Shown piece after piece: positions 24,868-47,774 of a stretch of DNA of 64,000 bases. Both the position numbers and the translations under genes were made by a program. Source of the DNA: Marsupella aquatica (Eukaryota; Plantae; Marchantiophyta); assembly GCA_973895155.1 (NCBI GenBank), contig OZ316892.1, positions 3,289,223 to 3,353,222 on the forward strand, read 5' to 3'. Positions within the stretch are counted from its first letter, which is position 1. The number at the start of each line of letters is the position of its first letter. Under the pieces are notes generated by a model that saw only the letters and a program-made list of their open reading frames with translations, ran no database searches and was not told where the DNA came from.

Positions 24868-26001
24868 CTAAACCAAGTGCTCCCTACAATGTGTATTTGA
24901 GCATGTGCCCCTGTCTCCTTTCCTATCTACCCTATTGTCACGGTTGCAACTCACTTTATTTTCAGGGAGTTGAAATCTGGTGGTGTTGTTCCTAATGGCT
25001 ATAATCTCCCGCAAAAAGTGTCTGGGATTTTCTCTATATGGACCTGAATAGTCCTTTCCTAAAAATGATTTAGCAAGTGAGTTGACAAGTGCATTGTCAA
25101 GTTCCACCTCAGGACGTAAACTACATATACGGTGCTTTACATTCCAAGGGATCTCATTACTGTTGAGGTCCAACACACTATGTGTAAACTGTGACTTCCA
25201 AATTTTTGCTGCAAATCTCTTGCTAAGTTGATCATAAGTAATCTCATTTTTTGCCTTGTCTCTCTTCATGTGCAAAAGAGACCACTTTGGAGAGTTGAGA
25301 AGAAGATAGCATCTAATGTCACTTGCATGTGATAGTTTCTCAAGACATGGCCAAAGAATTGCTAGAAGAAAATTATCTCCACGATTGGCATGCGTGTAGG
25401 GCACTGGAAATAATCCGGTCATGTCTGGGTTGGCAAATGCCTTAAGGGGGGAGTCATCCACAAGGAGGGTGTTGGTTTCATCATATAGATTTCCAAATGC
25501 ATTCCATACCACCTGAAAATCCTTCAGTAGCACATTTGCCTTTCCGTTTGTAATGTCACGCCTTTGAATGCCTGTGTCAAAGGCTTCCACCTGTGTGAAT
25601 ACAAACTTAAGTTTCAACCGCTCCTCAACAGTGAACATCATGTTCAGCATTTTCACTGTTCGTTCTACCCCAGCACAAGTCCAAATTGCAACGTCAAATC
25701 TGTCAAAAACCAACTTTAGAAACTCATGGAGCCCTGGTCGTTCTGTATACATGCGACTAATACCATTTTTTCTATCCCAATGCACTCCACTTGAGGTGAC
25801 AATATTCCTGGATGTGCCCTTGTTTTGGAATTCAATAGAATCCCAAAGTATTTTATTAAGGTCCAAAATCAGCAACTTCCGCTTGACGGGACCAGGTCTC
25901 GATTCTGCAAGTGCACCAAACACCATTCTCAGAGAAAAGACCAAAAGTGAACTTTGGATTAGGATTGTCTCAGTCCAAAAATACAACACAATGGCTGACA
26001 A
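24868..26001 (-). CDS. FCP1/NIF (HAD-like) phosphatase-homology domain; coding exon probably 25904-24868 plus mini-exon 26083-26024
   Basis: KLLILDLNKIL, ERPGLHEFL..FDVAIWT, LLKDFQVVW, NTLLVDDSPLKAFANP are NIF-family motifs. DLN replaces the DxD motif. Confidence 0.8.
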   Translation of the reverse strand: MSAIVLYFWTETILIQSSLLVFSLRMVFGALAESRPGPVKRKLLILDLNKILWDSIEFQNKGTSRNIVTSSGVHWDRKNGISRMYTERPGLHEFLKLVFDRFDVAIWTCAGVERTVKMLNMMFTVEERLKLKFVFTQVEAFDTGIQRRDITNGKANVLLKDFQVVWNAFGNLYDETNTLLVDDSPLKAFANPDMTGLFPVPYTHANRGDNFLLAILWPCLEKLSHASDIRCYLLLNSPKWSLLHMKRDKAKNEITYDQLSKRFAAKIWKSQFTHSVLDLNSNEIPWNVKHRICSLRPEVELDNALVNSLAKSFLGKDYSGPYRENPRHFLREIIAIRNNTTRFQLPENKVSCNRDNRVDRKGDRGTCSNTHCREHLV

Positions 26002-26143
26002 AAACGAAAATTAACCTACATACCGTTTTTAGAAGCCTCACAATGTGTAGACGGATATGGAGACTTTAATTGGTGAGCCCATTCTGTGAGACCGAGAAGT
26101 ATTTTAGATTGATATGAATAAATAGAAAGTCAAAGGCTGAATT

Positions 26144-29100
26144 TCATTCCGAAATAAGAGATCCGTATTCATCAATAATCATGTCAGCACCAAGCTCCTG
26201 TTGGATTTCAAAATTGACATCTGAAGTACTTTGTTCTACCCAATAAGGAGAAGTCCAAACAGGAGTTATGAACCCCAATTCTCCCCTCTTATACTCCTCC
26301 TTATTGAGAATTGAAGGAGCAGCTTCCAATGATATTTCTTGGCCTCGATTTGGCCCACTTTTCCACACGTAACATCGTGCGTCGCGTTCCAATGACCTCC
26401 ATCCAGTTGATCCAACTCTATTCCCTTTCTTTTTTGAGAACGGAAGGACAACAGGACTCCTCGAGTGTGAACGAACAAACACCAATTTGTCATCAGAAGC
26501 TGAAAAGAGTGTGTCAGGACAAGTTGAAGCACCTGCCTGGTTGTCAACAGCCGTTGATGCATTTCCTCCTGGATTGATGGGAATGTCAGGCAATCCGCCG
26601 GCTTCCCCACGAGTCAATTCGTTAGTTTCAGCTTCATTTGAATCTCCAAGCCTCGTTGCGCCTTCGTTGATCAGATTGGTTGAAGAAAGATGATCAAACA
26701 TATCAACCCTTGCTCCTTCCAGTTGCTCCATCTGTCCTCCCGGCGTTGTTGGATTGGGATCATCCTTGTCCAAGTTATCATCAACTTGAACTTCATGGGG
26801 CCCCGGAGGGATGTCATCTAAACCAGATGAACGGTTTGGTGCAAGTCCAATATCATCATCTACATCGTAAGGCTCACCTTGACCAACACGGTCATCCAAA
26901 TTTTTGACATATGCCTCGTCTGATGCCTCTACGCCTTTAGCCACTTTGTCAGCAACATCTTCAGACTCAGAACCGTCGGATTCAACAGCGACAGCTACAG
27001 CCGCAATAGTGGTAGCCCATTGTCGAGAATTTTCAGCAAGTGATTCACAATGGGCTTTAAGTGAGGGAACTCTCTCGCAAAGGTAGGAAGCAAAAGCTTC
27101 CACAAAATGCCTCTCGGACTGAGAGTCACAATAAACAAAGCATTCCCTATCGCAAAAAAATGATGTCTTCATGACTTGGCCACCGGAGAAAAAATCTAGA
27201 ACCAAATCTCCCGGTTCTGATAAGGATTCAATAATCCTTTGGATCATCCGCGTGGGTTTGGCATGAGGATTAACCCATCCTCCGCGACTACCAACTGTCT
27301 CAAATCGAGGGGCCATATTCATAATCTTGACGGCCTCTTCCGGGTCCAAAACCACTTTTAGGTCGTCGTTTTGTGTCCCCTCATCTGATTCCTTAGCTTT
27401 CCCCTTTCCCTTGTCGATCTTGCATACTTCATAATCAACATCCTTTGAAGTATACAAGAATTTTGGCTTTGGATAGTTGGGCTTGAAAACTTCATTCCAA
27501 TTGACGTCTTCATCTCGAGAAATCCCTGCAAAGATAACTTCTTCAATCCCTCCACCCCAACATGAGTCATGAGGGTGCGGTTGATCATCTCGTGAATAAC
27601 TCCCATACTCAATGTGAATGGTCAAAGCTTTCTCTTGTCCCAATTTACGAAGGGCACCATGGACATTCAGTGCAAGTTGTCCAGGATGAACTGTTATCGT
27701 CACCACAATCGTGGGATTTTGTGGAAGCTCCACAATGTATTCAAAGAGAACAAGAATCTCTGCTTCAGTCCACTGTTTTTGTGGAAGCCGGCTAAAATCA
27801 ACAATGGCAAGAGGGCAGGTCGGAGGAGCTTCTTGCAATGACTCTGGATCAATGGTCTTCATGAGATTGTCGCTAAAAAATGTAACCCATGGTAGGGTCC
27901 GAGAACGTGATCCTCCGCCAAATCTCTGGCAGTATATATCATCTAGGCGGAATACCAATGCCGTCGGCAAGATTGCGCTCTCCCGCGTATGATTTGGCTT
28001 TAAAAGGTTGGCAAGATAGACCTCGCCAGCGGCTCTTCGACACCTGCTGAACTCTGAATCAATTGCTAGCGTAGGAAGAACCTCAACTACTTTCCCCCAA
28101 TTAGTATTTGTCGGGAAATTCACCGCATCCTTGGTGCAATAGTAGTCTTCAATAAGGGACTTGAGTTTCCGCACGATCTTCACATCTTTGGCCAACTCCT
28201 CTATAGATGGCATGTCTGATTTATTAGAGGCATCTTTCTTTAGCAATACCTTTCCTGACTTCACCCGCGTCAGTATTCTTGTGATGTCTCGTTGTGAGAT
28301 CAACTCACCATCAAAACAACGAAACATGGCAACAGTAATTGCTTTTTCAGACTTCTCATTTCCTTCTACACCAGCTCCATCGGGAAGTTTCCCATCCAAC
28401 CACAATTGGCATACCAAACTCCATAAATCAAAAAGAGCATTGTCGGCAAACAGTAACCAGTAGACATTACGACAATCTTTCCTTCCCATGGTCATTCTTG
28501 CAAGAGCCAACCAATCCTACAATTGCAAAGGAAAGTCTGTTAGTTCTCCATAACTCAATTGTTTGAAAGCACTCAGGTGCGGACTGAGACCATCCCAATC
28601 CAACACAGAAGTAGACAGTATCAGTGGAAATATTATATTGAATGTGCATGATTTAGTTTGGACTAGGACCATCCCAATCCAAAACAAAACTAGACGGTAT
28701 CAGTGGAGAAATATTCTACTGAATGTGCATGAATCCATTTGGACTGGGACCATCCCAGTCCAACACAAAACTAGACAATATCAGTGGAAATAGTCTATTG
28801 AATGTGCATGAATCCATTTGGACTGGGACCATCCCAGTCCAACACAAAACTAGACGATATCAGTGGAAATATTCTACTGAATGTGAATGTATCCATTTGG
28901 ACTCGGACCATCTCAATCCAAGGCAAACTTGAAGCTTTGTGGTCAAAGACTACCATCTCAATTGTAATCACACATGGAGAGTCTACGGTATTGTGCCAAT
29001 CAAGCAGTAACACTTCATACCTGAAATTTTTGATTGTCTTGAGCGTTTGTTTTGTTGTCCCCATGTTTTGGCCGGCTAGGTTTTCCACATTCCACAAATT

Positions 29101-31304
29101 GCCGCCTAGCATGAACGACTGTATCTTTGAAGCATGACTGAAACACCATCGTGCTATTGATAGCATTAGATCGCATTGAATGCTCAACTAATATTGATGA
29201 TGGTGTTCGATGAGATAATATTCTTGACTTTCGAAATTCCAGCTTTTTTGCCAATGCTGTTAGCTTGGCATCCTTGTTTGCCCATTCTCGAATCCATCTG
29301 GCTGCTCTGGCTGAATGTTGACCGCTAATGGCAAGGAATTGAACCTCCCCCTTTTTCACGGCTGCTACAAAGTCCCTCCTATCTGATTCCGTGTTGTCAT
29401 ATTGCATTAGGTTTCTATGTTTTGTAGTGTAAGGAATCAAGTCTGCTATGTGTGGTTCATGCCCCGGATTTCTTATCATGGAATTGGCCACCTCCTTTAC
29501 ATGGTCTGCATTCAACATTCTGTAACAGAGTCTTGCCGACGCAGGGAAAATACTCTCTACGGGAATAGAAAATATCGAATTGATCCCAAACGTATAATAT
29601 TGCTCCATTTGTTGTAGTACCTCATTACCTTCTAAGACCTTCTTCTCCTCAGGAGCGTCCAACTGCTCGTCCATATCTTGTGAATGCACTGTCAGGTTTT
29701 CTGTAGTGTCATCCATGATGACACTGTCAATTTTCTGTTTCTTCTTTTGTCTTGGCCTCTTTTCACTTGCACTTGGCTTCTCAACCGGACGTTTCTTCTC
29801 AACTGGCTTCTCAACTTGGCTTCTCGTACTCGGCTTCTCAACTGGCTTCTGAACTCGGCTTCTCGTACTCGGCTTCTCAACCAGCTTCTCAACTGGAAGT
29901 TTCTTTTCAACCGGAGGTTTCCTTTGGCTTTGTTTTTGTTTTCCCACTGCTCTTTGAGAGGTTGCTGCTGTAGTTCCCGCGGTCTCTGTTGTAGGTTCTG
30001 GAGCTTTCTCTGGCGCCTTCTCGGGCACAGGGTTTGTATTCACCGTTGGAAGGTTTCTCGTCTTTGACAAAGATTCTATCCATTGCTTTGCTTTGACTAA
30101 ATCAAAGTTGGGATCAAATGCAACATCCTTATCAATTAAAACACCAGGCTCCTCTGACTCCAACGATAACAATCCAACTTTCTCAAGTAAATTGCTTAAC
30201 GTCCAAGTAGTTGCAAAAGAGAAATTGCCTTGGTGCTTCATCATGTTGAGTTTCAAATATTGAAACCCATACATAATGTCTACTGGAAGCATACCAGTTA
30301 CCCCGATGACCAACTTCTTTGTGTCATATGTCTTTGGAAAAAATCCCATTGACAAAACGCTCAATTCACCACTTGCGTGCCATTCGACATTGAATTCTGA
30401 GGAGTATGCCTTTGACATAAGGTTAACTTTAACCCAGCATGACCTATCGTGCATCTCCAGAATGACCGAATTCATCCCTCTCCCTCCAATGCCAACAGAG
30501 ACCACAGGTCCGCAAACCAAAGTCAGGCTATCATTTGCTCTGCACTTTAAGGTCAAAACAGGTTCAATCGTGCTTGATGGCACTTCATTATTAAGCGGGG
30601 TTCTTGAGAACTCAAGCCCCCATCGGAAGCCTGGGGATCTCTCATCTAGTAAGAATCCGTCCCGGCAGTCGGTCGGTGCAATCGCGGGTTTGAAACCAAC
30701 AAGATCGCTCCCTGCATCATAAAAACATCATCCATGTTAGACTTATTAAGTTTAAAACATTTGAATAACTCTTGTTGGATTAGGATGGTCCTAGTCCAAC
30801 TTGAGATGGTTTTAGTCTTGCTCCTACAATCGAGATTCAATCTCCTGGATGGATTAGGATCATCCGAGTCCAAGTTTGGATTGGGATCATCCGAGTCCAC
30901 GTTTGAATTAGGATCATCTGAGTCCAAGTTCGGATTGGGATGGTCCGAGTCCAACTTTGGATTGGGATCATCCGAGTCCAACTTTGGACTGGGATCATCC
31001 GAGTCCAACTTTGGATTGGGATCATCCGAGTCCATGTTTGGATTAGGATCATCTGAGTCCAAGTTCGGATTGGGATGGTCCGAGTCCAAGTTTGGATTGG
31101 GATCATCCGAGTCCAACTTTGGACTCGGATGGTCCCAGTCCTCTAAGACTTAGGGAGGATAGGTGATGGATACTTACTAGGGATTCTTGATTGAAATTGT
31201 TTGGAGTCTTCAAGTGCCAGTTCTACACTGTCGCTCATAGAGGAGAGGTCAAACTCCTCTGTTGCTTCCACGGAGGACTTCACAAGGACGCGATTCGCTT
31301 CCAT
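26144..31304 (-). CDS. Spliced ParB-like plus N4/N6 DNA-methyltransferase-like protein; exons 31304-31178, 30711-29021, 28516-26144 (1396 aa; possibly extended to the NIF exons, about 1746 aa)
   Basis: Canonical phase-compatible GT-AG introns: 31177-30712 (A|GTAAGT...ATGCAG|GG) and 29020-28517 (CAG|GTATGA...TTGTAG|GAT). ParB-like YRMLNADHVKEVANSM...FLAISGQHSARA. MTase motifs X/I NPHAKPTRMIQRIIESLSEPGDLVLDFFSGG. No stops. Confidence 0.72.
28580..28925. repeat. About 79-bp tandem repeat (about 4.5 copies) in intron 2 of the cargo gene
   Basis: Unit CAGTGGAAATATTCTACTGAATGTGCATGAATCCATTTGGACTGGGACCATCCCAGTCCAACACAAAACTAGAC. It contains the reverse complement of the 27-bp core. Confidence 0.9.
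30775..31141. repeat. 27-bp minisatellite in intron 1 of the cargo gene
   Basis: Unit TTGGATTGGGAT(GG/CA)TCCGAGTCCAA(G/C)T, about 11-12 copies. Confidence 0.93.
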
Positions 31305-32366
31305 CTTTCTGACATGTGGCAGAGTGACACGTGGCTTCTTAGCAGGCGTCCGATTTAGGGCAATGAAAAAGAATGGAGGTGGAGGCGGAAGCAGGCAGAG
31401 GCGGGGAGGCGGAGAGAGAGCGGAGAGCAAAGAGCGAGGAGAGCGAGCGAGTGAAGGCAAAGAGCAGAGAGCGGAGGCGGAGAGTGGAGAGCGTGAGCAG
31501 AGTGAGGAGCGAAAGAGTGAGAATGAGAATGAGGTCCTGGCTGGACCTCTCCGTCCCTTTACCCCCTCCTGCCTCACCCCGGCCTGCGTACGGCCGGTTG
31601 CCTCCTTCTCCTACGTACGGCCTGATAGTGCGTACGGCTTGCTCCTGCGTACGGCCCGTTGCCCGCACCCTGCATACGGGCCTCCTTCCTTGATGTCCTG
31701 CCTACCTAACAGCCTTGCACGGTAGTCCCCGCGCAATTAGGCTCGTGAAGATAAGGTGTGCCGCAAGCTAAGGTGAAGGGGTACTCAACCCTTATCTTCA
31801 CGCGATTTCCGTTTGAGCCGACTCGAGCAAAGGGTATATTTCGGGAGACGCCCACTTCGGAGCTCATTCTTGTTCTAGTTTCCCAAATCTAAGCTCCATG
31901 TAATCCGGAGTTTCTCTTAAAGTGTTATGTATTGAGCCACTTACCTTCAATGGGTCAGCTTAGCCAGCTTCTTGACTTTTGGGGTCCTCTCAGTTTATCT
32001 TTTACAGACATGTGTGGTTTAGGGTTCAGTTTGTTTTTTACTCCCAAGATTTAGTGGCATATAGCTTGTATTTCAGGGTTCTGGGAAAGTTTTTACCAAT
32101 CTACAGACAACAATGTATCCCCCTTGGATGTGATATTCATATTCTACCAGATCTTAATACTAAGGTGAGTATAAGGTTAACGCATTCAAATATAAGGCTA
32201 GGTTTCATTATTTCATGAAACTGTATGTAGACATTAGGGTCTACCTTAAGACCACGCAAACTTTAGGCTACACCATATAGGGAGATCCGTAAAATACGGA
32301 GTCTTCCTAAATTTGGAATTTTCTTAGCTTAAAATGTTTGAAGTTTATCTCCCGTTACATTATGGG

Positions 32367-33135
32367 TTGGTCTAGGATGGTCCTAGTCCAAGTTTGGATT
32401 CAGATGTGGACTAGGATCATCCGAGTCCAACTTTGCATTGGGATCATCCGAGTCCAACTTTGGATTGGGATGGTCCGAGTCCAAGTTTAAACTTGGATGG
32501 TCCAAGTCCTAGTTTGGATTGGGATGGTCCGAGTCCAAGTTTGGACTTGGATGGTCCAAGTCCTAGTTTGGATTGGGATGGTCCGAGTCCAAGTTTGGAT
32601 TAGGATGGTTCAAGTCCAACTTTGGATTGGGATGGTCCGAGTCCAAGTTTGGACTTGGATGGTCCAAGTCCTAGTTTGGATTGGGATGGTCCGAGTCCAA
32701 CTTTGGATTAGGATGGTCCGAGTCCAACTTTGGATTGGGATGGTCCGAGTCCAAGTTTGGACTTGGATGGTCCGAGTCCAAGTTTGGATTGGGATGGTCC
32801 GAGTCCAAGTTTGGATTGGGATGGTCCCAGTCCAAATCCAGAATCGGAGGATCGTACTCCAAATCTAGACTCGGAGGATTCCAGTCCAAATCCGAACTCG
32901 GATGGTCCCAATCCAAATCCATAATCGGAGGATCGTAGTCCAAATCTAGACTCAGAGGATTGCAGTCCAAATCCGGACTTGGATGGTCCCGGTCAAAATC
33001 CGGACTCGGATGGTCCTAGTCCAAATCCAGAATCAGAGGATCGTAGTCCAAATCCGGACTTGGATGGTCCCGGTCCAAATCCGGAATTGAAGGATCGTAG
33101 TCCAAATCCAGACTTTGAGGATCGCAGTCTGAATC
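32367..33135. repeat. 27-bp-family minisatellite upstream of, or intronic to, the transposase ORF
   Basis: Same unit as 30775-31141, grading into GGATCGTAGTCCAAATCC variants. Confidence 0.93.
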
Positions 33136-33175
33136 AAAATTTGCATGACTTTGGTTGTAATCCATTTTTTTCAGT

Positions 33176-36100
33176 GTGCAGGATAATAGGAAAAGGATGT
33201 CTCAAAGGTTTTCTAGGGGCGATGATGTGACCTTGACAATGGATGGTTACGACGTTGGAAATGGGACAGTTCAAAAGACAGATCCGCAAGAGAGTGTTCA
33301 AAATATTGTGCTGGGAGAGAATCGAATTGGGGTTCTCATTGAGAAGGCCTTTGGTGAGACCAGGAAGCTCCCTTTTCCAATGCCTAGGGCGGAAAATCTT
33401 CATGATGCCATTGACTCATGTGTCATTTGGGATATGTCATGTGCATATCGATCTGCGGATAAGATTACTCAAAAACGCATCAGTATTGGTAGTTGTTCGA
33501 CTCGAAAAGATAACAACATCCATAATTCTGCAAATGTACAGGAGGATGCTTCGACCACCCTAAGGCCAGGTGATGAGGTTGAAATGTTTATCTCTGGCCA
33601 TTGTGTGGCCTTTGGAGTTGTTTTCAACACTGATCCAATGGAGAGATGTCATAACATATTACTCGGTGAGTCTCGGGTTAGTGTAAAAATCACAGATGTG
33701 ATTCATGGTAGTAAGACTTTACCTTACGCACATGGTGGAGCTGCAACAATTGAAGAGGCAAAGGGCTCCTGGGTTCTATGGGATGTGGCTGACGTCCACA
33801 ATAAAGTATGGAATGTTGATATCGATGGGAGCAACAAATCTTCCTCTAAGAAGCAGAAGGACAAGGCGGATTTTGTTTCACAGTCTTGTTCGGCAAACAC
33901 CACAGACACTAAGTGTGACTATTTTCATCGGGCAAACTGGATGTCAGAGTTGGTTGAACTCTACACTGGTTTGGATCGAACCAAAATGGTTGCCACGGGA
34001 ACGATCACTGTCCCTCAAGTGATGGCGGCAGTTGATGATGAAATTCTTGGTGATGACCATGTTGGGATTGCTGTGAAAGATGTCGTGGCAGCACAATACT
34101 TTCCCAACATCCACAAGGGAGTAGTGAGTTTGATTCGATGGCGGATTGATTCAACAAAACTAGTTGCAAATGGAAAATTTTTGTCAGATATTTTGGTGGA
34201 AGGTTCTGAAAGGATGGACTCAATGGATAGGGATGAACTCAATGCGGATGTAAGTGATAGAGGAGTACTGCGTTCAAGGCCCTACAATTTTAACAAGAGG
34301 AATCAAGTAGATCCAAATGAAAAGAAGAGGAGGTTGTTGGAAACCAAGGCAATTTCAAAAACAACAGAGGCGTCAATTGATGACGTGAAAAGAGAAAATT
34401 GTTGCAAGCAAAAATGTTGTCTCATTATCCCAAGGGAAAACATCGAAGATATTAGGATGGAATTTCATGGGATGTCAAGCGAGTCAAAAACGTCACACAT
34501 TTTCAACCTCTTTCACTATAGAGAGGATGATGTTCGTGATAAGGGACACCATGTTCTTAAGGGTATGGTCGTATGCAGACATGCATTTGCAATTATCCAC
34601 GGTTTTAGCCACACCAAATATTATGATTACAAAAGGAGATATGTGGAGGGTTGCAAAATTGGGTTCCATGGCAATACGGGCTTGATGAAAACAAGGGCAA
34701 ATACCTTGCATGCACGAGCTCTGTTGGAGGCTTTTTTGACTCGAAATGCAGAGCCCATGCCTCATATGCCTTATGGAGGGGCACATGGGACAGACTCTAT
34801 TGAGTACCGTCTTCCGGCGTGTTACAAAAAGCTAGAGATTCTGGAAGATGTGAGAACAAAGATGAAGGAAGAAGGGCTTCCTCCTGTCACAGAGAATACT
34901 CTCTACAAGATCTGGAGTAACTCATTTGCAAACTTCAGTTTTCATAAAGATGGTGCATTTGCCAAGTGTACTCTTTGTTGTGAATACAAAGACAGTTTGA
35001 TGCGAGAAAGAAGGAAAAAAGAACGTGCTGAAATTGAAGAAAAACGAGCGCAACATCTTCGTGAGCAAATGTCACGTAGATATGTTTACTACGCTCATCG
35101 AGTGATGGCCAAACAACACCCAGGAGAATATCTTTGCATTATTCACGACAAGATGGATCAAGCAAAGACATGGATTCCAAAAATGGTTAGTACTCCTAAA
35201 TCTCTTTCGGGTCATGGAATGCCGCTACCTATTGCTCTCACAGGGATGTTGACCCACGGGAGGGATCCAGGAGTTTATGCACACTTTAGTGTCACTGGCC
35301 TTTGGCCAGGAGATGCCGATTTCACGGTGACATCCTTGGCTAAGTGTCTTCGAGACCTTGAAGAGTACAATGGAGACAAGACAGGTGACATGTTGGATGG
35401 CCTTCATTGGGAACCTCACAGACCTTTCTTTCAAGCCCTACTTGACTTTGAAGCATTTTTGACGGGTTATTTGGAACCAAAGAATATACCGGTGAATAGG
35501 TATATTGGTTCTGAAGATGGAGCTGAGAGTCGGACTGAGACCGTCCCAAACCAGCAAGATGAGGATGATGGAGAAGACATGCAAGGAGAGCAAGGCAGTC
35601 CATCGTTCAAGCCCTTGCCAAGGCACCTAACATTGCAGATGGATAATTCAGCAAAGGACAACAAAAACCAGACTGTCATGGCATTTTGTAGCGAGCTTGT
35701 GAGTAGAGGAGTATTTGAAACTGTTCAAATGTCTTTTCTAATGGTTGGTCATACACATGAAGATGTTGATGCACTCTTTTCAAAGGTATCATATCAAGTT
35801 CAGCACAAAGAAGTTGCAACCCTCCTTGCTCTTATGGCAGAGGTATGGGAATGCGAGAGCATTCATCCAGTTCCCAGATTGATACAAGAAGTTGCATCTT
35901 ACAAAGAATATCTTCAAACTTTCAAGGTGAAAGATATTCAAGGTCACTCAAAACCTGTATCATTTCTTTTCTCTATGAGAGATAATGTACCAATATTTCA
36001 GTATAAGTCCCATGTAAAGCAAGCTTGGGCTCCACTTGGTGGAAGGTGCATTTGGGCAACAGATCTGACAACAAATTCTCTTCTTTTACCAAGTGGAGAG

Positions 36101-36958
36101 CCCTTAGCTAAATCCATTGGAGAGATACACAAAAAATCTGAAGAGATTATCCCATTTCTTAACAAGTACCTTGATTTTTTGAGAAGGAGTTGCACTGATG
36201 AGACATCTATAGCATATAAGGAAAGATTTCCTCTTGTGAAATATTGGGAGAGAATTGTGGAGTTGTTGACAAATGGGCTCGCACTAGAAGGGGAGGGAAG
36301 TACTCAATTTCCCTTGGAAAACAGATTTTGGCCTAAGACTAACCACGGCACTGGTTACAAGGTCAACCAACCGGAACAAAGTGGTCCTCCAAGTGAAGAT
36401 GAGGAGAATGCAGAGATGACGGCTCTTCAAAATGAGGTCTTGGAAGAGATGGAAGATCAGGCAGCACCATTTGTTGGATCTCGAGCTGAGAGAGAACAAG
36501 GACGATGGATTCCTTTACAAGATATTTGTGAAGGAAACTTTGTATTTCTTCGACCCGAGGATGACTGGGAGAATAAAAATGGTGGAGGTCATTTCTGGTT
36601 GGTGAGAGCTTTGGGTTTGGTGGACCCAAAGCATGAAGTCCCAACTACATCTTCAACAAACCCTTCTCTGCCTCGACAGTACGCTCCAATGTTCCCAGTT
36701 GAATGGTGGAGGCCTAAACACTCTAGTAAACTTGATGTGACTGAGAGTGCGCGGTATCTAAATTGTTTCATGTCCACTAAGACATGGGAACGAGATCCAG
36801 GGTTTGGTGAGAATACTCAACATTGGCAGTATGCAAATTCTGCAATGTATGGTTTTAAATCTGGAATGAAAGAAGAAAACATGGCAGGCAGAGGTTTGAA
36901 GATCCCTCGAAATGTTCTACAAACTGTCCAAAATTATCTTCAAAGGATGGACAAGTAG
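33176..36958 (+). CDS. Sola-like (DUF7869-type) DDD transposase with N-terminal repeated beta-barrel domains; true start probably in an upstream exon (acceptor TGTGCAG at 33181)
   Basis: CCKQKCC, VCRHAF and CTLC...H metal-binding motifs. Catalytic-type HDKMDQ, LTLQMDNSAKDNKN and FLMVGHTHEDVDALFS. C-terminal GNFVFLRP..FWLVRA..VEWW barrel. Lies within TIRs with a 4-bp TSD. Confidence 0.85.
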   Translation: MQDNRKRMSQRFSRGDDVTLTMDGYDVGNGTVQKTDPQESVQNIVLGENRIGVLIEKAFGETRKLPFPMPRAENLHDAIDSCVIWDMSCAYRSADKITQKRISIGSCSTRKDNNIHNSANVQEDASTTLRPGDEVEMFISGHCVAFGVVFNTDPMERCHNILLGESRVSVKITDVIHGSKTLPYAHGGAATIEEAKGSWVLWDVADVHNKVWNVDIDGSNKSSSKKQKDKADFVSQSCSANTTDTKCDYFHRANWMSELVELYTGLDRTKMVATGTITVPQVMAAVDDEILGDDHVGIAVKDVVAAQYFPNIHKGVVSLIRWRIDSTKLVANGKFLSDILVEGSERMDSMDRDELNADVSDRGVLRSRPYNFNKRNQVDPNEKKRRLLETKAISKTTEASIDDVKRENCCKQKCCLIIPRENIEDIRMEFHGMSSESKTSHIFNLFHYREDDVRDKGHHVLKGMVVCRHAFAIIHGFSHTKYYDYKRRYVEGCKIGFHGNTGLMKTRANTLHARALLEAFLTRNAEPMPHMPYGGAHGTDSIEYRLPACYKKLEILEDVRTKMKEEGLPPVTENTLYKIWSNSFANFSFHKDGAFAKCTLCCEYKDSLMRERRKKERAEIEEKRAQHLREQMSRRYVYYAHRVMAKQHPGEYLCIIHDKMDQAKTWIPKMVSTPKSLSGHGMPLPIALTGMLTHGRDPGVYAHFSVTGLWPGDADFTVTSLAKCLRDLEEYNGDKTGDMLDGLHWEPHRPFFQALLDFEAFLTGYLEPKNIPVNRYIGSEDGAESRTETVPNQQDEDDGEDMQGEQGSPSFKPLPRHLTLQMDNSAKDNKNQTVMAFCSELVSRGVFETVQMSFLMVGHTHEDVDALFSKVSYQVQHKEVATLLALMAEVWECESIHPVPRLIQEVASYKEYLQTFKVKDIQGHSKPVSFLFSMRDNVPIFQYKSHVKQAWAPLGGRCIWATDLTTNSLLLPSGEPLAKSIGEIHKKSEEIIPFLNKYLDFLRRSCTDETSIAYKERFPLVKYWERIVELLTNGLALEGEGSTQFPLENRFWPKTNHGTGYKVNQPEQSGPPSEDEENAEMTALQNEVLEEMEDQAAPFVGSRAEREQGRWIPLQDICEGNFVFLRPEDDWENKNGGGHFWLVRALGLVDPKHEVPTTSSTNPSLPRQYAPMFPVEWWRPKHSSKLDVTESARYLNCFMSTKTWERDPGFGENTQHWQYANSAMYGFKSGMKEENMAGRGLKIPRNVLQTVQNYLQRMDK

Positions 36959-37210
36959 ACTTAGTTGTTAGAAGCTATAATAATTAAATAGATAGTTACT
37001 AGTTTTTATGTAACTAAGATAGTCACTCATTCAAACATAGTAATTTATGTACTAGTTATTTACTATTCTAATAGTTTTAATGTGATACTATCTCCTCATT
37101 TTCTAAACTTTTGATCATTATAAATATGAATGTTTGCTTTTTCTACATAATTAAAAATGTTTTTCTATTCATTCCTTTCTTTTAAATGATTATAATAAGA
37201 GTTGGTAGGC

Positions 37211-37535
37211 AAATGTACACTTTTTAGGCCAAATGTACACTTTATTGCACTAAAAGTTACACTTTCTAGACCAAATGCACTTAAATGTACACTTGTTAAG
37301 CCAAATGTATGCATTTTGCACTCAAATGTACACTTTCTAGGCCAAATGTACTCAAATGTACACTTTTAAAGCCAAATGTATCTATTTTGATGTTCAAATT
37401 TACACTTTTCATTGCCCAAATGTACACTCTTTAGGCCAATTGTAAACTTTTCTATCCCCAAATGTACACTTTTCATTGGCCAAATGTACACTTTTCCAAG
37501 CCCAAAAGTACACTTTTCACTGCCCAAATGTACAT
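37211..37535 (+). repeat. Right subterminal AAATGTACACTTT motif array
   Basis: More than a dozen perfect or degenerate copies at about 20-22-bp spacing, in the same orientation as the left array. Confidence 0.9.
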
Positions 37536-37715
37536 AAATCAAATAATAATACACTTTTAATGAATAGGCTGATTTTGGTGAATCATAGCCACAATTAAAA
37601 TTGAGGTGTTGGTGGAGAAATTGTATTAGGGGATCAGTTTTGTGTGTGGGCTCAACATACCAAAAGTATGTGTGCTCTGCATCCTTGTGTGGCCATTCCA
37701 ATTCATTGCAGTAGC

Positions 37716-37859
37716 AAATGCCTTTGTACCTTAAATGCTAAATATATTTTACTTTCTGTGCAGTCTGCTAAATTGTAGAGTCTATCTAAATGCCTTTGTA
37801 CCTTAAATGCTAAATATATTTTACTTTCTGTGCAGTCTGCTAAATTGTAGAGTCTATCT
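37716..37859 (+). repeat. Perfect 72-bp tandem duplication
   Basis: AAATGCCTTTGTACC...AGAGTCTATCT at 37716-37787 and 37788-37859. Confidence 0.92.
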
Positions 37860-37870
37860 CATGCGCAGGC

Positions 37871-38551
37871 ATGGCACGGCCTAAAATTCAAGCCAAAAAG
37901 CGTGTGACAGAGGTGAGAAACACAGGTGTACTTGGGGCAGATGCTACTAACTTCTTTGCAAGTCAGATTTTCCAGAAGGCAGCTCATTGTTGTGCCATTT
38001 GTGACGATGGTGGGGGCCTGGTCATTTGTGAGGGCCCTTGCATGAGGCATTTCCACCTCAACCCGGAGTTTGACCTTGCTGCAGAAAACAACTGTCCAGG
38101 GGTGGGCCTCCCGTCAACACACCAGGGAGACTGGATGTGCACTGATTGTTTGGAGAAGCAGGCTAAGTGTGCACAGTGTGGGAAGTTGGGATCCTATGAG
38201 GGCTCTGTTGATGCTGCAGCAAATGTTAGGAAATGTCCAGACCATTTTTGTGTGAGATTTTTCTGTTTTGAGTGTTTGCCTGCTCATGCCACAGCTTGCC
38301 CACTTCATAGGTGCAAGGCATGTGGTGAGCATGATGATGACTACTGGACTGACATAGTCCACTGTGCTAGGTGTCCCACTATGTGGCACTATCATTGCCT
38401 GAAAGATCATCAAGCAGAGGGTTATGCTTGTGACAGAGAAATCTATGATCACTCTGCACATGGTGTTGATTGATGGATATTTTATTGTCATCGCCATGCC
38501 ATTGATCCTACCTCGCGCACTCCTGTGAGAGATCACATATCTTGGCTGTGA
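37871..38551 (+). pseudogene. Stand-alone EDM2/NSD-type composite PHD-finger gene with one premature stop
   Basis: CAICDDGG..CEGPCMRHFH..CxxC..CAQCGKLGS..CPLHRCKAC..CARCPTMWHYHCL. After TGA at 38471 the frame continues WIFYCHRHAIDPTSRTPVRDHISW, matching the EDM2 IYC..H.ID....TPVRDH motif. Confidence 0.82.
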
Positions 38552-39137
38552 AGCTGAACATTGTACATGCACAGTGCACCTGATGTGGATGTACTATTTT
38601 TTGAGATTGCAGAGATTCCAATTTTGAAAAGGAGTTGGGTAGGTGAGTTTATATAGGCAGCACTTATCTTGTGCTCTGGCGTCAGTGGCTCGGTACATGC
38701 CTATACAAACTTATCCTTACAAGCCTTCTTGGAAGTATTTAGGCTGAGTGGTCATTTTCATAAACACTTTCATCAAACTGCTAAATTAAAACAGGACTTC
38801 TAAGTTGTAAGCGTATAAATTATCAGGCATGCAATTAATCAAATTGCCCTATAAGTTTGTCATTGAATGTATCCTCCTTTACAACAAAATATGTATGTGC
38901 CATGACAAGTTGGTTGCACTTCATTTCACCACGGATATGGATTTTGTAGTATATATTCAAACAATGTCCTGCATCCGTGCAGGTGCCTAGTACGTATTGT
39001 TCACATATCCCTTGTACCTATCAAAATCGGACCTGAGCACCAGTGGGCCAGATCAACTCAAAAAGCAGGAATTTTGTTGTCCTTGTATTGTCAGGTGAAC
39101 CCATTCTTCCAAAATTCACTGTCATCACGTAGGGTGT

Positions 39138-40016
39138 GTGTACATGGAGCCTGGTAAACGTAGAAAGTGTGACCACCCAGCAGTGTTTACAGGGGTCAGA
39201 GCGATTTTGGTCCATGGCCAGCATGGGTTGACCAAAGTGCATTGGCCAATTGTACAGAAACGATTCTCTGAGCTCCATGGCACTGTAGTTCAGGACATCA
39301 CTCCAGAGACTACACATGTTGTTGCAGGGACATGGCTATCAGTGATAAAGAAGTGGTCATGGTCCTACATGAATTCTGCAATTACTAAGCAAGGCCTAAA
39401 AGTAGTTGAGGCCTCTTGGATCACAGATTCCATAGCACATAAGATTGTACAGGATACTGAGCAATATGAGTTGTGGGAGGATGAAGAAGCTACTGCATCA
39501 GCTTGGGCTGAACAAGAAGTCTGGGAAGCAAAGGCACGGCTTGCTGATCTCCAATATGGACCTGTACTCAACAAAGGACAGAGCTCTACAAGGCTGAAGA
39601 GTATGTTGGCTGAGGAGACGAAGCAACCAACCCCCATTCTGAAAGGGCTGAGCATGGTATTTGTGGAGGCGGGAATTGGAGAGGTTAAGTGCAAAGTGTA
39701 CAAGTCCACAGTGCTTGACCTAGGTGGGACAGTGGAGGAGAATATAACAGAGGACACCACTCATGTCATTACTAAGTCATATCCCAAAGCCTGCCGCAAG
39801 TTTGGGAAGGGAGACATTCGCTTTTATGTCATGTCCCATAATGTGTTTGTGGTTTCATATGCTTGGCTTGTGGAATCAGTAGCAGCTGGGAAGCGTCAAA
39901 ACCCAATGGACTATGATCTTTTTGAGGCCTGGCCACGGAAGGGTCAAGATCCTTACAGAGAGGACTATGAGACAACAAGTGAGGAATGGGTCATTAGCGA
40001 TTCTGAATCAGAGTGA
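39138..40016 (+). CDS. Tandem BRCT-domain protein
   Basis: Two repeats: VFTGVRAILV..GTVVQDITPETTHVV..VVEASWITDS..YEL and ILKGLSMVFV..LGGTVEENITEDTTHVI..VVSYAWLVES..YDL. Confidence 0.82.
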   Translation: MYMEPGKRRKCDHPAVFTGVRAILVHGQHGLTKVHWPIVQKRFSELHGTVVQDITPETTHVVAGTWLSVIKKWSWSYMNSAITKQGLKVVEASWITDSIAHKIVQDTEQYELWEDEEATASAWAEQEVWEAKARLADLQYGPVLNKGQSSTRLKSMLAEETKQPTPILKGLSMVFVEAGIGEVKCKVYKSTVLDLGGTVEENITEDTTHVITKSYPKACRKFGKGDIRFYVMSHNVFVVSYAWLVESVAAGKRQNPMDYDLFEAWPRKGQDPYREDYETTSEEWVISDSESE

Positions 40017-40449
40017 GGAGTAGTAGCATCAGTTTGGACACAAGTTTTTTTGTATAAATCAGATCATTGAAATAAATGTGATCTTTGAACTAATGTACCT
40101 TGTTATGGTTGGTGGCAGTTGGGCTTATTTTACTGTTGGCGGATTGTTGTTTCCTGCTGCCTGGGGGTGTCACTGTAAACGTACATGCAAAGGCGGTACA
40201 TTTGAGGACAGCAGAGGAGGTGGTGACACCCTCCAACATTTAGGAATTTTGTGTCATTCACTTGACAATAGGTACACTACTTGCGAACCTGTTTTTTTCT
40301 TTTGGGGTGGTTTAGGGTTTGTGAGAATTTAGTACACGTTATGTTAACTCTTTTGGCAGATACAGTCAGGGATATATGGAACACAAATACCACCATTAGG
40401 CATCCTTGTTCACTGCTGTCCATGACTGCAGAGCTCCCAGCCTGTTACA

Positions 40450-43400
40450 ATGCACCCTGGTCACCACCCTCCCCAGACCCAGCCCAGGGCACAGGCACTG
40501 CCTTTGCATCATCCCACAAGGATATCACGCCATGATAATAAGCTTTGGCAGCGTGAAAGGTTACGAACCAGACTTTCAGGAGCCAGTAGGATGAGATGTC
40601 CTTGTGCAATCTGCCAAGGATCCCGTACCAGGGGTCTGAATGAGGTTTGGCGGCATATCGCGGTTCATGGAAGAGATCCACGACATCGAGTTTGGAATGA
40701 TCCTGCAGAGGAAGATTCTTCCGACGAGGAGTGGAGGTTAGAATTTGATGCTGCCAATGCTGCAAGACGGGCAAGTGAGGTTCTGCCTGGTGCATTTGAA
40801 AATGTTGTAGCTGGTCTCTGTGGGTTGTCAGCTCTCCAACGGGATGGTGCTCAGGCAGCACCACGTGACGAAGGAATTCATGTGGAAGAGATGGTGAGAG
40901 ACATCTTCCAAGACTTGGATGCATTTCATGATGGGCTGGACAACGAAGAGGATACGGCTGCAGATGCAAGTGTGCCCCCTGTCGAAGAGCCTCTTGATGA
41001 GTTTGAGATAGGGCAGGAAACCCCTGGGCATGATGGGATGTTTGGCTCTCCCCTGCAAATACAGGAAGGCAGGAAGTCTTTGTACCTCGGTAGCAAATGT
41101 TCTAAACTGGGATTTGTCATCATGTTCCTGAACATTTGCGGCAACCACAATGTCCCCAACATTTTGGTTTCTGAGTTGTTGGCATTCTTGCGAACAACTG
41201 TGCTACCAGATGGTAATATTTTGCCCAAGAACATGTACGAGGCAAAAAGATGCATATCTAATCTTGGATTGAACTATGATTCGATCCATGCCTGTCCTGA
41301 TGGGCATGTTCTTTTCAGAAAGGAGTATAAAGAATCGTTGATATGCCCTAAGTGTGGGAAGCACAGGTATCGGAACTCAGGAAAGTCTATGGTTCCCGCC
41401 AAGGTACTTCGTCATTTTCCACTCATTCCCAGAATTCAGCGGATGTTCAGAAGCCGTGCCATCTCGGAGATGATGACTTGGGCAACTGACAAGAAAAGTG
41501 ATGATGGGCTACAACGACATGCTGCAGATTCAAGGCAATGGAAACTCATAGATGAGATGTATCCCGAATTTGCTGCTGAGCCGAGGAATGTCAGACTTGG
41601 GCTGTCATTGGATGGGGTAAACCCATTTGGAGACAAGAACAACAAATTTTCGTGCTGGCCTGTAACTATTTTGAATTATAACCTTCCTCCTTGGATGACT
41701 ACAAAGCGATTTTTTGTTCTGATGGTCCTACTGATACCAGGGCCAGACAGTGCTGTATCTGCCAACATAGATGTGTTTCTGGCTCCCCTAGTGGAGGAAT
41801 TGAGAAAGCTTTGGGAGGAAGGAGTTCTCACATATGATGTCCTACAGAGGCTTGGGAGGTTAAACCCATTCATCCTTAGAGCCATTGTCATTCTGACTAT
41901 AGCTGACTACCCAGCCCATGGGATGATATCAGGCCAAACAACAAAAGGATATTGTGCTTGTACTATCTGTGGGTGCAATGTCACCAGTGAGTACTCCAGA
42001 GCCCTGCAGAAAGTGATATACATGGGCCATCGTCGTTTTCTGAAGGCAGATCACCCTTACAGAGAAAGACAGGCACTGATTGCACACTTTGGCAATGAGA
42101 TTGAGCAACGTGGACCCCCGACACGAGTGACCAAAGAGGAGATCAGGCAGTGGGGAGCACTGAGGGATGACTATATCAAACGAGGGGGCAGGGAAGATGG
42201 AGTGAGTGATCCAATAAAGCGATATGGTGTAAAAAGACTGAGCATATTGGACTTGGAGCTCAAGTACTGGAGGGTAAGCCTCTTGGAGTTGATGCTAATT
42301 GGGATACATGTTTTGGTTCAGAGCATGTGCATTCATTTCGAAGAGAGAGACTAAACTTGAGGCATTTCCTGACGCTTTTGCATTGCAACGATGCAGGAGT
42401 TTGAGCCAAGCAAACATAACATTGATGTTATGCACATTGAAAAGAATATTTGTGAGAGTCTACTCAGATTCTTGTGTGGAGAGAAAGACACTGGTTCAGT
42501 GAGATTGGATCTTGAACAGAGGGGAATGAAACCCCATCTTTGGTTGAGGCCACATGCCCACAGAGCTGATGTGCTCTTGAAGTACCAAGCGCCCTATGTT
42601 CTGACAGACACAGAGTGGGAACTATTTGTGCAGAGGTTGAGTTCTTTGAAGGTTCCTTCAAACTATGGCAGTGCTTTCAAGAAGCATATCATGACTAGAA
42701 AGCTTGGTAGTATGAAAAGCCATGACTACCATATGTTGATGCAACAGGTGTTGCCTTTATGCCTGAGGGGCCTGTTGCAGAAGCCTGTTCGTACTGTGAT
42801 CATGCGACTCAGTGATGTGTTTCGTCGTATTTGTGTGAAGGTTTGGGATGAAACACACTTCCCACAACTGACATAAGATGTCGCTCAGGTGCTGTGTGAC
42901 CTGGAGATTTATTTTCCTCCCGCATTTTTTGATGTCATGACCCACCTACTTGTCCATGTTGTGGAAGAGCTACACCAATTTGGGCCTGTGAGTGCTCGTT
43001 GGTTGTACCCTTTGGAACGGTACATGAAGCTACTCAAAGGTCACGTGAGAACATATTACAAACCTGAAGCAAGCATGGCTAAAGGTTACATCAAGGATGA
43101 GACTCTGGGATTTCTGACCGAATACATAGCACAATATGAGCATGTGAAGACCAGGGTGTGGAATTCTGATGAGGAGGAAGGGGTGATAGGTGAAGTACTG
43201 GAAGGGGCTGCAACCACAAAGAACCTGACCATATCTATGAGAGACTTGGCACATGACTTTGTATTGCACAACACTGTGGTGATGGAACCCTGGATACAGT
43301 GAGTGCATACATGTGCTATAATCCAGTTCATGAGCTTAAATGTTGTGTTCGTGTGGTTTTCTCCTTCAGCCTGTTCATGTTTACCCAAGCTAATGCTGTG

Positions 43401-44181
43401 TGGTTGTTCGTTCAGGGAGTATGAGTCATTGAAGGCGGCCCATCCCACTGTAGGAACAACTTTTCCAGGTTTCATGGAGTGGATCAGAGTGGCAATTAGA
43501 GAGCATCACGAGACCCACCCAGACATGGATGCAGATGTTTACCTACTGTCTAATGCCCCTAGCCTGAAAGTGAAGACTTACAAACGGATGAGAGCATATG
43601 GGAATCACTTCCGAGTGAAGGATGGTGATAGTGCCTACAGGGTGACGAATGACTGCGGGCTCATCACTGTATTTGAGCAACAGAGCCACAATCACGACAG
43701 GGCCTGGATGGAGATGGGATATGTGGGAGAATTAGTTGACATATGGGCTCTGGACTATGGGGCGGTGTCCAGTCCTGTGATTCTTATGAAAGGTTCATGG
43801 GTGCGGCAGGATTGGCTTGGTAACAGGGCTACCATGAAGAGAGACAACGACGGTTTCTTGCTGGCCAATTTTAGAGGGAAATTGCCCGAATGGTCTGAGC
43901 CATTTGTGTTTCCTAGTCAGGTGGAGCAAGCTTTCTTCCTGGATGTGGAAGACTCCCCAGGTTGGCGTGTAGTGTGTCATAAACAGGCCAGGCAACGTCG
44001 GATGAAAGGATCAAACCTTGAGTTTCATTTACACTCTCATAGTGCCTTTGATCGTCGGCGTTCAGACCAAGTGCCTGTAGTTCATGATAGCGGGGACTTC
44101 ATTCCTGTGACAAGGGTAGATGCATTTGCTGAAGGAGGCGAATTCAGAGATGCAGATGCCAACAGTGTGCCTGTGCCATGA
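40450..44181 (+). pseudogene. CACTA TnpD transposase; exons 40450-42273, 42397-43298, 43416-44181; one in-frame stop
   Basis: CPCAIC, IHACPDGH..CPKC, RNVRLGLSLDGVNP, YNLPPW, IADYPA, DVMHIEKN, MKSHDYH, FPPAFFD.MTHLLVH, ARWLYPLERY and EPFVFPSQVEQAFF match the Transposase_21/DUF4218/DUF4216 pattern. TAA at 42874. Confidence 0.93.
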
Positions 44182-44337: not shown

Positions 44338-47300
44338 ATGGAACAGAGTGACACAAAGATGTGTGAGTATGAAAGGAAAGCTATGGAACAACGAGCATAC
44401 GTGAAAGCCAAAATCGCAGAACTGGATCTGGAAAAGGATGTGGCTGAATTGTAAGGGAACGATTCTCAACTACACCCCTCCGCTGAGTTTGTGTGACATG
44501 AATAGTTCAATGTGGCACTGAAATTGTGACTGTATTCTCATATTGGAATGTCGCAGAGCCACAGCATTTTCAAAGAAACAAAAGGAGTACGCAAGAAGGG
44601 TGACCAGCACTATCTCTGGGCCTGTGCGTCGGAGTGACAGGTTGAGCAAGAAGGTCGTACCTACAATGGCAGAATGTGGAGATGACATTGATGCTGCACA
44701 GGTGGGTGCAGACACTAGACAAGAAGATGCAGATGATGAGTATTTTCCAGAGGAAATGGATGAGGATGGGGGTTATGAAGATGAATACATTGCAGAGCAG
44801 CCCCAAAAGAAACATGTAAGTAGTTTTCCCAACAAGGTTTTGAGTTAAAAACTCTTGTTTAGAGGTTTCATATGTTCAGTACTACACATATGTACCTTGC
44901 TTAGTTCCTGACATTGTAGTTGGTGATGTGATGTAGCGTCCTGCCAGTTCTGTTTTGCCTTCGAAGCCTGTGCATGCACCATACCAGCAGGGGGGGCTGA
45001 CCTCTGATCAAGGTTGGCAAGGTGGTAGTAGTGGTAGATCCCAGGCTGGTGCCCAATACTATGGCAGGGGGCAAGCTCTAGGTTATGCCCGTGGTAGAGG
45101 CAGAGCAGGTCTAAACCCACAATCTCGTGGGTATGGACGTCCACCTCAACCATGGGGATGTGAGTATATATCTATATGCCAGTTCTTTGTGAAGGCATGG
45201 CACTCCTGAATTTCAGACTGCATATCAATTTTTGACATTGTTTGGGATGTATTGGATTCAGACAACATGAAATTCTGTCCACCTGCCATTGCATGCAGAT
45301 TCTGCCCAACCTGATTGGGCAAATGCTAGTAATGATCAGTTCCAATGTCCACAAGGACAGACATGGGTTGAACCAGGTTGGGAGGATGGTGGTGGGTCGT
45401 GGAATGAACAAGGTTGGGAAGGTGGTGAAGGTAATTGGCAGGGATATCAAAATTCAGTACCTACAAATGCTGGAAGAGGAGCAGGTAATGTCTGATCTTG
45501 TCAGCAATGGAAGAACTCATTATATGTGGAGTCCATTCACGTGGGGGGGACTCTGCACATGTATAATGATAGAAAATGTATGTGTGCAGGTTGGACAGTC
45601 GAACCATCGACTCAAGTATTCACTAATGCCCCTATGCAGATGCAGCACGGAAGGGGGACAGGTATGTTGGTGAATGTTCAGTTGTTTTCCTACAGTTAGT
45701 TTTCAGTACATATGTTTGCACACACATACCTAGAAAGTGACATCATCCGGCCCCTGTACTAGGCTGGACAGGTGGTCCAGGGTCGCAACAATTTCAGAGT
45801 GCAGTCCCTGCACAGGCATCTACAGGCAGAGCTACAGGTATGTATGTTTGAAGAATTTTTCTTGAAGTGAAGCATTGAATGTTGCCGTCATCCATTCTGC
45901 TATATGTAGTTCTCAAGCATGAATGGCATTGTATTTTCCCAGGTGGCTTCAGAACCCCAGGTAGGGTGAATGAAGGGGTGGCCAATACAACGCCCAGTAC
46001 TACCGAGAGCAGTGCACGAGGGGAGGTGACAAAGAAAGGGAACGTAAAGTTGAATGAGAGACAATGGGTGGATGCTGAGTGTCCTCGCAAGAACCGATGA
46101 CATGCTGATTTGAAAGCTGAAGTATTGCGTTGGTTAGATGTGAGTGTTATTAATTTTAAAAAACAGCATCCAAAAGATTGGAAGACTGTATGTGAAAATG
46201 TTGCTGCCAAATGGAATTATGTGGGCAGTGATGATGGCGTGGACATAGGTTGCCTAGAGAGTACAGCAGGTAAAATTATCAAGCAAGAGAGGTGGAGAAT
46301 GCATAAGGCTTGGAAGGAAGGTGGGGAGAAGCCAGATATGCCTCCACCAGCCAGTTGTGATGATAAAGTGTGGGCAAGGTTAGTAGCTTATTTTGTAACA
46401 GATGCTTCAAAAAAGAAGAGTTCACAGATGACCGAGGCCAGGTTGAGTGTTCAGAACCCTAATCTGACAGGAAGGACCGGCACTGCACCGACAGCTAAAC
46501 GTTTGGTAAGAATGAATGGCCTAGCTATGTAATTTATGCTACACTATGTACTATTTTTTAGTGTAAACCCATACATGTAAACTTTGTTTTTTAGTGTACG
46601 TTCCCTGAATATTGATCGATAACTTGTGTTTGCCATGCATGTGCAGAAAGCCCAATTGGGGCAAAGCCCTTCAAAAGAAGAGTTGAGGGCTGAAATTGTG
46701 AACACCCGGGCTCAAGAGGGTGCATCTGAATCCTCCAAGCATGTAAGTTATATGAGTTCTGATTGGTAATTGAATGACCTGCGTTGAATTTCAGGTGTAC
46801 ACTGTATATAACATTGATTGTGCATATATTGCCCAACATTTCATATGGAGTGATTGAACCTATACCCCTGTGTCATGTAGGGAGGTGGATCTTCACTTAC
46901 AGAGATAAGTGGTTGTTTGAAGGCTGTCGAAACATGTCTTCCAGAGATCAATGAACGTTTGAATTCATTGACTGACTTGTTCCATGTGAACTTCAAGACA
47001 TTAATGGAAGCTGTTGTGTCGGTGAGAGATAAAATTGATTCCAATTCTGCAGGAGTTCCACCATCACCACTTGAGGTGGCAAAGTCGATGCACTCTTCTG
47101 GCATGCCAACGACATGTAGGCTTGAGGTGGATGATATCAATGTTGGGGCAAATGAGGATATCAGCAAGCATGACAATGATACCATTGAGCCAGATTCATG
47201 CTATGTAGATCTTGACTCCATTGCAGAGATAAATGATTTGCAGAATGTATCATTCTCAATGACAGGTGTGCCTCTTGTTGAGATAAATCCAACCAAAGAG

Positions 47301-47774
47301 TTAGTTGGTATGACACTCCCAGGTGATGAACCTGCTACTGTGACAGTCCTAACAGAGGAACCTACTGAGCCTAGCTTCACTACTGTGAAGAGAGGAAGCA
47401 TGTGCACACGAAGCAAGTCTGCTGGTGGGAGCAGAGCCACGTCAAAGGTTTCATACAAACCTCCAAGAACAGTGCTGGCAGAAAGATCTAAGGTGGAAGT
47501 GGGGAAAGCACCTAATGCTGAGGGACAAAGTGGCTTGTTAGCTGTTGATGAGAGTGGAACACGAGTAGGATTTGCCAGAGTGCAGGTTGGTTCCACAACG
47601 TTCCATGGCAAGAGGATTCCCCCAGGTTATTCAGTAGTGTTAGTCACATTACTAGTGAAACCTAAAGCTATCCTTCCCATTCCAAACACAAATGATGATC
47701 CTCCTCAAAAGACACTTGGAGATGCTGCAGGTTCTTTGGTATTATGGCCAAGCAAGTTCATAGAGGATCCATAA
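44338..47774 (+). pseudogene. Multi-exon CACTA TnpA/ORF2-like gene
   Basis: Coiled/acidic and Gly-rich exons. Transposase_24-like exon PPPASCDDKVWARLVAYF..KKSSQMTEAR..TGRTG. C-terminal VGFARV..FHGKRIP..LPIP..TLGDAAGSLVLWP domain. In-frame TGA at 46098. Exon limits are approximate. Confidence 0.72.

Follow-up and report, generated by a model that had tools for sequence, protein, structure and literature searches.

In this work we have analysed a 64,000-nucleotide stretch of the genome of the liverwort Marsupella aquatica (contig OZ316892.1, hereafter the window) and found, within a CACTA transposon, a stand-alone gene for an EDM2-type triple PHD module, broken in this copy by an internal stop. 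The encoded protein has about 20 full-module relatives, mostly of 206–245 aa and 29–81% identical, which form an old family under purifying selection, and their N-terminal tail follows the register of the first residues of histone H3. We consider the chances about even that the intact form is a CACTA accessory chromatin factor, acting both as a reader and as an H3-tail decoy or adaptor that blunts host silencing of the element.

When all pairs of CACT[AG] ends in the window were scanned, two nested elements with target duplications emerged, which are presented here together with the main features inside them:

16736–60824, + strand: CACTA-A, outer element around CACTA-B; TIR 13/13, target duplication TTT
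18049–48629, + strand: CACTA-B, element carrying the PHD gene; TIR 12/13 and 22/30, target duplication CTT
24486–37573, unstranded: nested DNA transposon with a DUF7869 transposase, 34-nt inverted ends and a TTTG duplication, 297 bp upstream of the PHD ATG
39099–40016, + strand: tandem-BRCT accessory ORF, uninterrupted, between the PHD gene and tnp2; contigs of other copies cover it
40426–44181, + strand: CACTA tnp2/TnpD transposase (Transposase_21, DUF4218, DUF4216), with in-frame stops
46101–47774, + strand: TnpA-like exons (Transposase_24, below cut-off)

The PHD gene, the tandem-BRCT ORF, tnp2 and the TnpA-like exons all lie on the same strand within CACTA-B, where the Pfam matches were Transposase_21 (E 3e-70) and DUF4218, plus DUF4216 and Transposase_24 below the cut-off. 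The nested insertion of approximately 13 kb has an empty site in contigs from two of the four runs examined and, being absent from other copies of the element, leaves the PHD gene as a component of CACTA-B. This copy of the element is dead, because of the stop in the PHD gene, the in-frame stop in tnp2 and the nested insertion.

The region contains other genes worth recording. Besides its 4-bp TTTG duplication, the nested transposon (which we take to be Sola-like) has a 1265-aa DUF7869 transposase frame, internal 27-bp palindromic arrays, an ORF at 26144–28516 matching N6_N4_Mtase (E 2.5e-6), i.e., a DNA methyltransferase-like gene on a transposon, a NIF/CTD-phosphatase-like ORF (24868–26010) and a further ORF of 570 aa. 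Upstream of this insertion, CACTA-B includes a 152-aa Cys/His-rich ORF (23551–24009) for which searches of Pfam and Atlas gave no match, and the outer CACTA-A has a SET-domain ORF (53781–54452, Pfam E 1.4e-5) as a second chromatin-type cargo gene. Outside the CACTA elements there are an uninterrupted 388-aa protein kinase frame (12819–13985), presumably S6K-like from its motifs, and a TALE-type homeobox ORF (10470–10946); both may be cargo of another element, given that a portion of the kinase region recurs at 1–401 of the window.

The PHD gene and its immediate surroundings are organised as follows:

37716–37859, + strand: perfect 72-bp tandem duplication just 5' of the PHD ATG, with an acceptor-like pyrimidine tract
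37871–38551, + strand: stand-alone EDM2-type triple-PHD gene, 226 codons, one internal TGA breaking the window copy
37874–37900, + strand: H3(1–9)-like N-terminal motif, codons 2–10, in agreement with the published iM-Z-R-X-K rule
37991–38149, + strand: finger 1 (C41–C93), preceded by a family box F/W-S/T-x-x-E-x-x-Q that replaces the EDM2 acidic patch
38168–38308, + strand: finger 2 (C100–H146), with a family-specific His-to-Cys ligand change and loss of a helix of about 20 residues
38312–38497, + strand: finger 3 (C148–H209), final two ligands behind the premature stop
38471–38473, + strand: premature TGA, CGA (Arg) in the other copies compared
38519–38536, + strand: TPVRDH terminal motif, common to EDM2-type proteins, with no match in 6/6 non-plant-type outgroup rows

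The translation gives 226 residues followed by the final TGA, with the internal TGA at codon 201. An in-frame TAA lies immediately upstream of 37871, which is thus the first ATG, and the coding part has no intron. Two bases ahead of the ATG there is an AG resembling an acceptor, so that a 5' untranslated intron is possible; splicing-in of an upstream coding exon is unlikely, since the sister genes begin at the same Met. The frame encodes every one of the 24 positions that hold zinc ligands in the EDM2/NSD triple PHD, and the Pfam scan matched it with three NSD-type PHD models, each under its curated cut-off. Aligned pairwise with P0114, a protein from the cluster that holds Arabidopsis EDM2, the window protein is 30% identical over residues 41–225 (E 4e-27), and both end in TPVRDH. 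Finger 3 ligands C206 and H209 are encoded 3' of codon 201, and since the stop precedes these last two zinc ligands the window copy of the gene is dead. Codon 201 is CGA in nearly all of the contig depth in each of the seven runs that cover it (eight were compared, the eighth having no coverage), and the aligned sisters P0002, P0003, P0004, and P0006 have Arg at this position. An earlier note on this DNA had described a complete triple-finger module ending in TPVRDH, encoded by an intronless mini-gene of about 225 aa with one CGA-derivable TGA and carried by a CACTA. All of this holds: ligand positions and terminal motif align with the EDM2-cluster protein, the 226 codons are uninterrupted by introns (other than the possible untranslated one), the other copies read CGA or Arg, and the gene is flanked by CACTA TIRs and the CTT duplication together with TnpD and TnpA coding regions. 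An AlphaFold model of an intact sister reached pLDDT 89 and pTM 0.83, and its best structural match was the PHDvC5HCH tandem of NSD2, with a middling Z of 5.2 (rmsd 2.6, 75 aligned). Foldseek against the PDB returned only weak PHD matches for the model, the best being the JADE1 PZP (E 1.5e-4, TM 0.20).

The N-terminus had been noted before as basic, which it is, although not merely so. The tail reads in the register of residues 1–9 of H3 (small residue, Arg, any residue, Lys, two free positions, Ala, a basic residue, and Lys), the H3 sequence having been checked against PMC9677696. Among the 30 family members with an N-terminus, 17 have the full motif, compared to 0.04 on average in shuffles and none of 128 other hits taken as controls; the shuffle counts overstate independence because the motif was defined after viewing the alignment and the members are related. 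The H3 letter order outscored 1000 out of 1000 permutations of its own letters on the family tails, and only two of 10,550 natural basic 9-mers scored as high, both from a stand-alone Marchantia EDM2-type PHD protein. The H3TM rule iM-Z-R-X-K, which is followed by 48 of approximately 21,000 human proteins according to PMC8166343, is obeyed by the window protein and nine of the 30 members at the called start, with two more at an inner Met, versus three of the 128 controls. The resemblance has its exceptions, as five of the 30 members do not have [AST]-R-x-K, and 14 of the 25 that do carry extra residues ahead of it, hence no free N-terminal Ala; position 3 is mostly Pro, compared to Thr in H3. 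A basic tail can also be simply a nuclear localisation signal. Both AlphaFold models suggest disorder, with pLDDT 45–58 over the first 20–30 residues; the tail has a pLDDT of 56 and a two-residue strand in one, and 46 and no strand in the other. Docking of the tail on its own finger is thus unsupported, the tail being of low confidence in both models.

One coherent explanation for a reader and an H3-like tail in the same protein would be the following. The product of ~220 residues would be made and enter the nucleus, where the finger module might bind either H3 tails or some partner protein, not necessarily with the specificity of EDM2. The disordered tail, with lysines equivalent to K4 and K9, could be mistaken for H3 by host writers or readers, for which established pathways offer SUVH-type methyltransferases and chromodomain or PHD readers as candidates. 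These would be drawn off, or redirected at the chromatin of the element, and carrier elements would keep more transcription and spread better, so that the gene would stay under selection. More tentatively, and with somewhat less than even confidence, we propose that an old plant CACTA lineage encodes a two-part counter-silencing protein, in which a rebuilt EDM2-type reader is joined to an H3(1–9) mimic that soaks up or redirects H3K4 and H3K9 writers and readers, within an accessory kit that includes the tandem BRCT and, in the neighbouring CACTA, the SET domain. If true, a plant DNA transposon would here encode a histone mimic.

It is also conceivable, if unlikely, that the protein is a targeting factor whose PHD module holds the CACTA transposase complex at a particular kind of chromatin, e.g., heterochromatin, with the tail serving as nuclear localisation signal or docking peptide. 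Heterochromatin is where insertions are least harmful, and retrotransposon chromodomains act alike; the tandem BRCT next to it might act as another adaptor, to chromatin or to repair. Mobile elements are documented to have captured readers for targeting (10.1101/2021.11.30.470311 and PMC12477816), but in the known cases the reader is fused to the integrase or transposase, and the PHD gene described here is separate. CACTA-B does sit inside another CACTA in a transposon-dense window, although a nested insertion is to be expected in any repeat-rich genome, and targeting leaves the conserved H3-like register unexplained.

The origin of the module was approached with a tree of 64 PHD modules (20 from the family, 38 EDM2-type and six non-plant-type; partial and near-duplicate rows were omitted). 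All family modules fall into a single clade (100/99), whose stem measures 1.04 changes per column, and this clade branches with the EDM2-type rows to the exclusion of the outgroup (98/86), in agreement with the EDM2-type origin that had been suggested for the gene. The gene is not a recent capture: its family is an old, long-stemmed clade. A recent capture from the fern EDM2 sampled here disagrees with the free tree, yet an AU p of 0.13 leaves this grouping unrejected, and joining the family to the liverwort EDM2-like clade (AU p 0.32) gives a sister relation that is neither shown nor rejected. Family marks are the Cys for His in finger 2 (20/20), a 7-residue spacer (18/20 parsed as 7) versus 24–28 residues in most EDM2-type rows, and an HI[SA]W end (14/20). 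The terminal YC..H..TPx[RK][DN]H motif after finger 3 appears in 17 of 20 family rows, 29 of 38 EDM2-type rows and none of the six outgroup rows. Two motifs are shared mainly with liverwort EDM2-like proteins that have a C-terminal PHD module (Calypogeia P0016; Marchantia MARPO_0172s0021, P0043): RCPxxWH (liverwort EDM2-like 6/6, family 19/20, other EDM2-type 6/32) and W-x-H after finger 3 (6/6, 18/20, and 1/32, respectively). These liverwort proteins keep the His ligand and the helix, whereas the family has neither. P0043 is annotated as a 280-aa stand-alone EDM2-type PHD protein; its basic motif is nearly identical to that of the family, and it may be of the donor lineage, a domesticated copy or a case of convergence. 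A separate clade of short EDM2-type proteins (P0018, P0026, and P0072; 99/94) also starts with M-A-R-x-K, which suggests that the same design arose again.

Arabidopsis EDM2 (ENHANCED DOWNY MILDEW 2, P0163) shares with the family the triple atypical PHD, the ligand spacing and the terminal YC..H..TPxRDH (PMC7529245, PMC9910501, and PMC3632883), and the 24 ligand positions align, with one His replaced by Cys. EDM2 has ~1300 residues compared to ~220, while the family is transposon-encoded and has the H3-like N-terminus. In addition to its acidic domains, EDM2 has a methyltransferase-like domain (PMC7529245). The window frame ends four residues past RDH and intact sisters end at the same place, without this (ELP) domain. 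The RFD (DNMT1-RFD) domain of EDM2, detected in P0163, P0031, and P0156, is also missing, only 40 residues preceding finger 1 in the window protein, as is the finger-2 helix. Over the 14 residues before finger 1 the net charge is -3 to -9 in 11 EDM2-type rows versus -2 to +4 in 29 family rows. Acidic residues before a PHD finger contact basic H3 residues, so with the loss of the acidic stretch EDM2 specificity cannot be assumed for the family. A sequence search of the PDB returned no EDM2 structure.

These losses bear on a further explanation, which we judge decidedly unlikely, namely that the protein is a stand-in for EDM2 in 3'-end processing that reads H3K9me2 and recruits, or competes for, ASI1/AIPP1 to obtain full-length element transcripts from silenced chromatin. 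EDM2 itself binds H3K9me2 within the ASI1-AIPP1-EDM2 (AAE) complex (PMC9910501 and PMC10423193), and the family has kept every one of the ligand positions and the terminal motif. However, nothing remains of the acidic patch before finger 1, of the helix in finger 2 or of the EDM2 domains other than the PHD fingers, with only 30% identity to EDM2 and a long stem. Reading of H3K9me2 in the manner of EDM2 is not established for the family, since acidic patch, helix, RFD and methyltransferase-like domains have been lost.

The family was recovered by several searches. A single-protein search gave five stand-alone relatives of 217–245 aa with 36–81% identity (109 candidates) and a profile search 17 relatives among 414 candidates; in a search of 50% clusters the short family members were the top eight of the 150 rows listed, above any full-length EDM2. 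A single-protein search for longer relatives scored none of its 295 candidates, full-length EDM2 being found through the cluster search. From the 19 complete modules measured, 18 are 206–245 aa long and one reaches 304 aa with an upstream extension. Start, stop and ligands are conserved at 29–81% identity, and the DNA of three metagenome loci gave dN/dS values of 0.14 and 0.16 in two of eight pairs, while dS was saturated in the other six (pN 0.34–0.43). Within 40 of 74 variant rows examined among the copies, 11 variants fall in codons 1–34 (three synonymous, eight not), none of them changing codons 2–10, and 29 in the module. After dropping three module variants private to the window, 13 of the remaining 26 are synonymous where 7.3 would be expected (p 0.014), and all 26 leave the zinc ligands unaltered. 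No indel at a frequency of at least 5% lies inside the PHD frame, and the 12 indels examined (out of 29) all fall outside frames. These substitution patterns indicate that the family is retained under purifying selection.

The CACTA context is seen for the window and its near copies only; the flanks of the three distant loci (1.1–1.9 kb each) are too short to show it. Downstream of a distant family member, the segment 849–1094 of L002 gave a weak BRCT hint (pairwise E 0.04, no Pfam match), a possible broken BRCT start. The restricted context would be compatible with the family consisting mostly of host genes or domesticated copies, with only the window lineage riding in a CACTA and selection reflecting a host function, and short EDM2-type proteins do exist in annotated genomes (e.g., Marchantia MARPO_0172s0021, with its similar motif). 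We find this improbable: at each of the three distant loci the coding region is uninterrupted, and two of the loci show frameshifts or stops like dead repeat copies, and the near copies are represented by many overlapping contigs with alternative letters. Finally, the earlier note named a single neutrally decaying fragment as its refuting case, and passive carriage of a neutral captured fragment (compatible with the stop in the window copy and the frameshifts of some relatives) has next to no probability left, as sister copies exist, dN/dS is far below 1, start, stop and ligands are conserved and the family is monophyletic; it is refuted for the family and true only of the dead window copy since the insertion.

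Turning back to the accessory chromatin factor that we favour, the best-studied plant transposon counter-silencing factors (VANC and TnpA) are sequence-specific DNA binders, and a histone reader that stands alone, is conserved and carries an H3-like tail would, if confirmed, represent a different counter-silencing route, through the histone code. The stripped PHD module could also reveal which parts of EDM2 give mark specificity, and the small size of the protein (~220 residues) makes the idea cheap to test. In the literature covered, which excludes most subscription papers and Repbase, we found neither a CACTA-borne gene derived from EDM2 nor any plant DNA transposon with a histone mimic, and the available sections of two reviews of transposon cargo do not mention PHD.

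The closest known systems resemble this gene in different respects. PHD and chromodomain readers have been captured by transposons, mostly as fusions (10.1101/2021.11.30.470311 and PMC12477816); these are likewise cases of a mobile element taking up a histone reader, whereas here the gene is free-standing and has an H3-like tail. The proteins with H3 N-terminal mimicry (PMC8166343) and the histone mimics of viruses (PMC6028506) have in common with the family an iM-Z-R-X-K start in a disordered N-terminus. They have been described for human and viral proteins, in contrast to the transposon-borne reader found here, in which the likeness extends to the A7 and K9 equivalents. VANC of VANDAL/MuDR (PMC13547354 and PMC10398659) is likewise a separate transposon accessory gene, and the anti-silencing VANC proteins probably come from a captured and repurposed host chromatin regulator (PMC13547354). 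The PHD gene has the same traits, being a transposon accessory that goes back to a host chromatin regulator and is maintained by selection. VANC, however, has an unrelated sequence and is a sequence-specific DNA binder, while Pfam scans detected no DNA-binding domain in the PHD protein, which instead brings a histone-reader fold into a CACTA, with anti-silencing as its candidate role.
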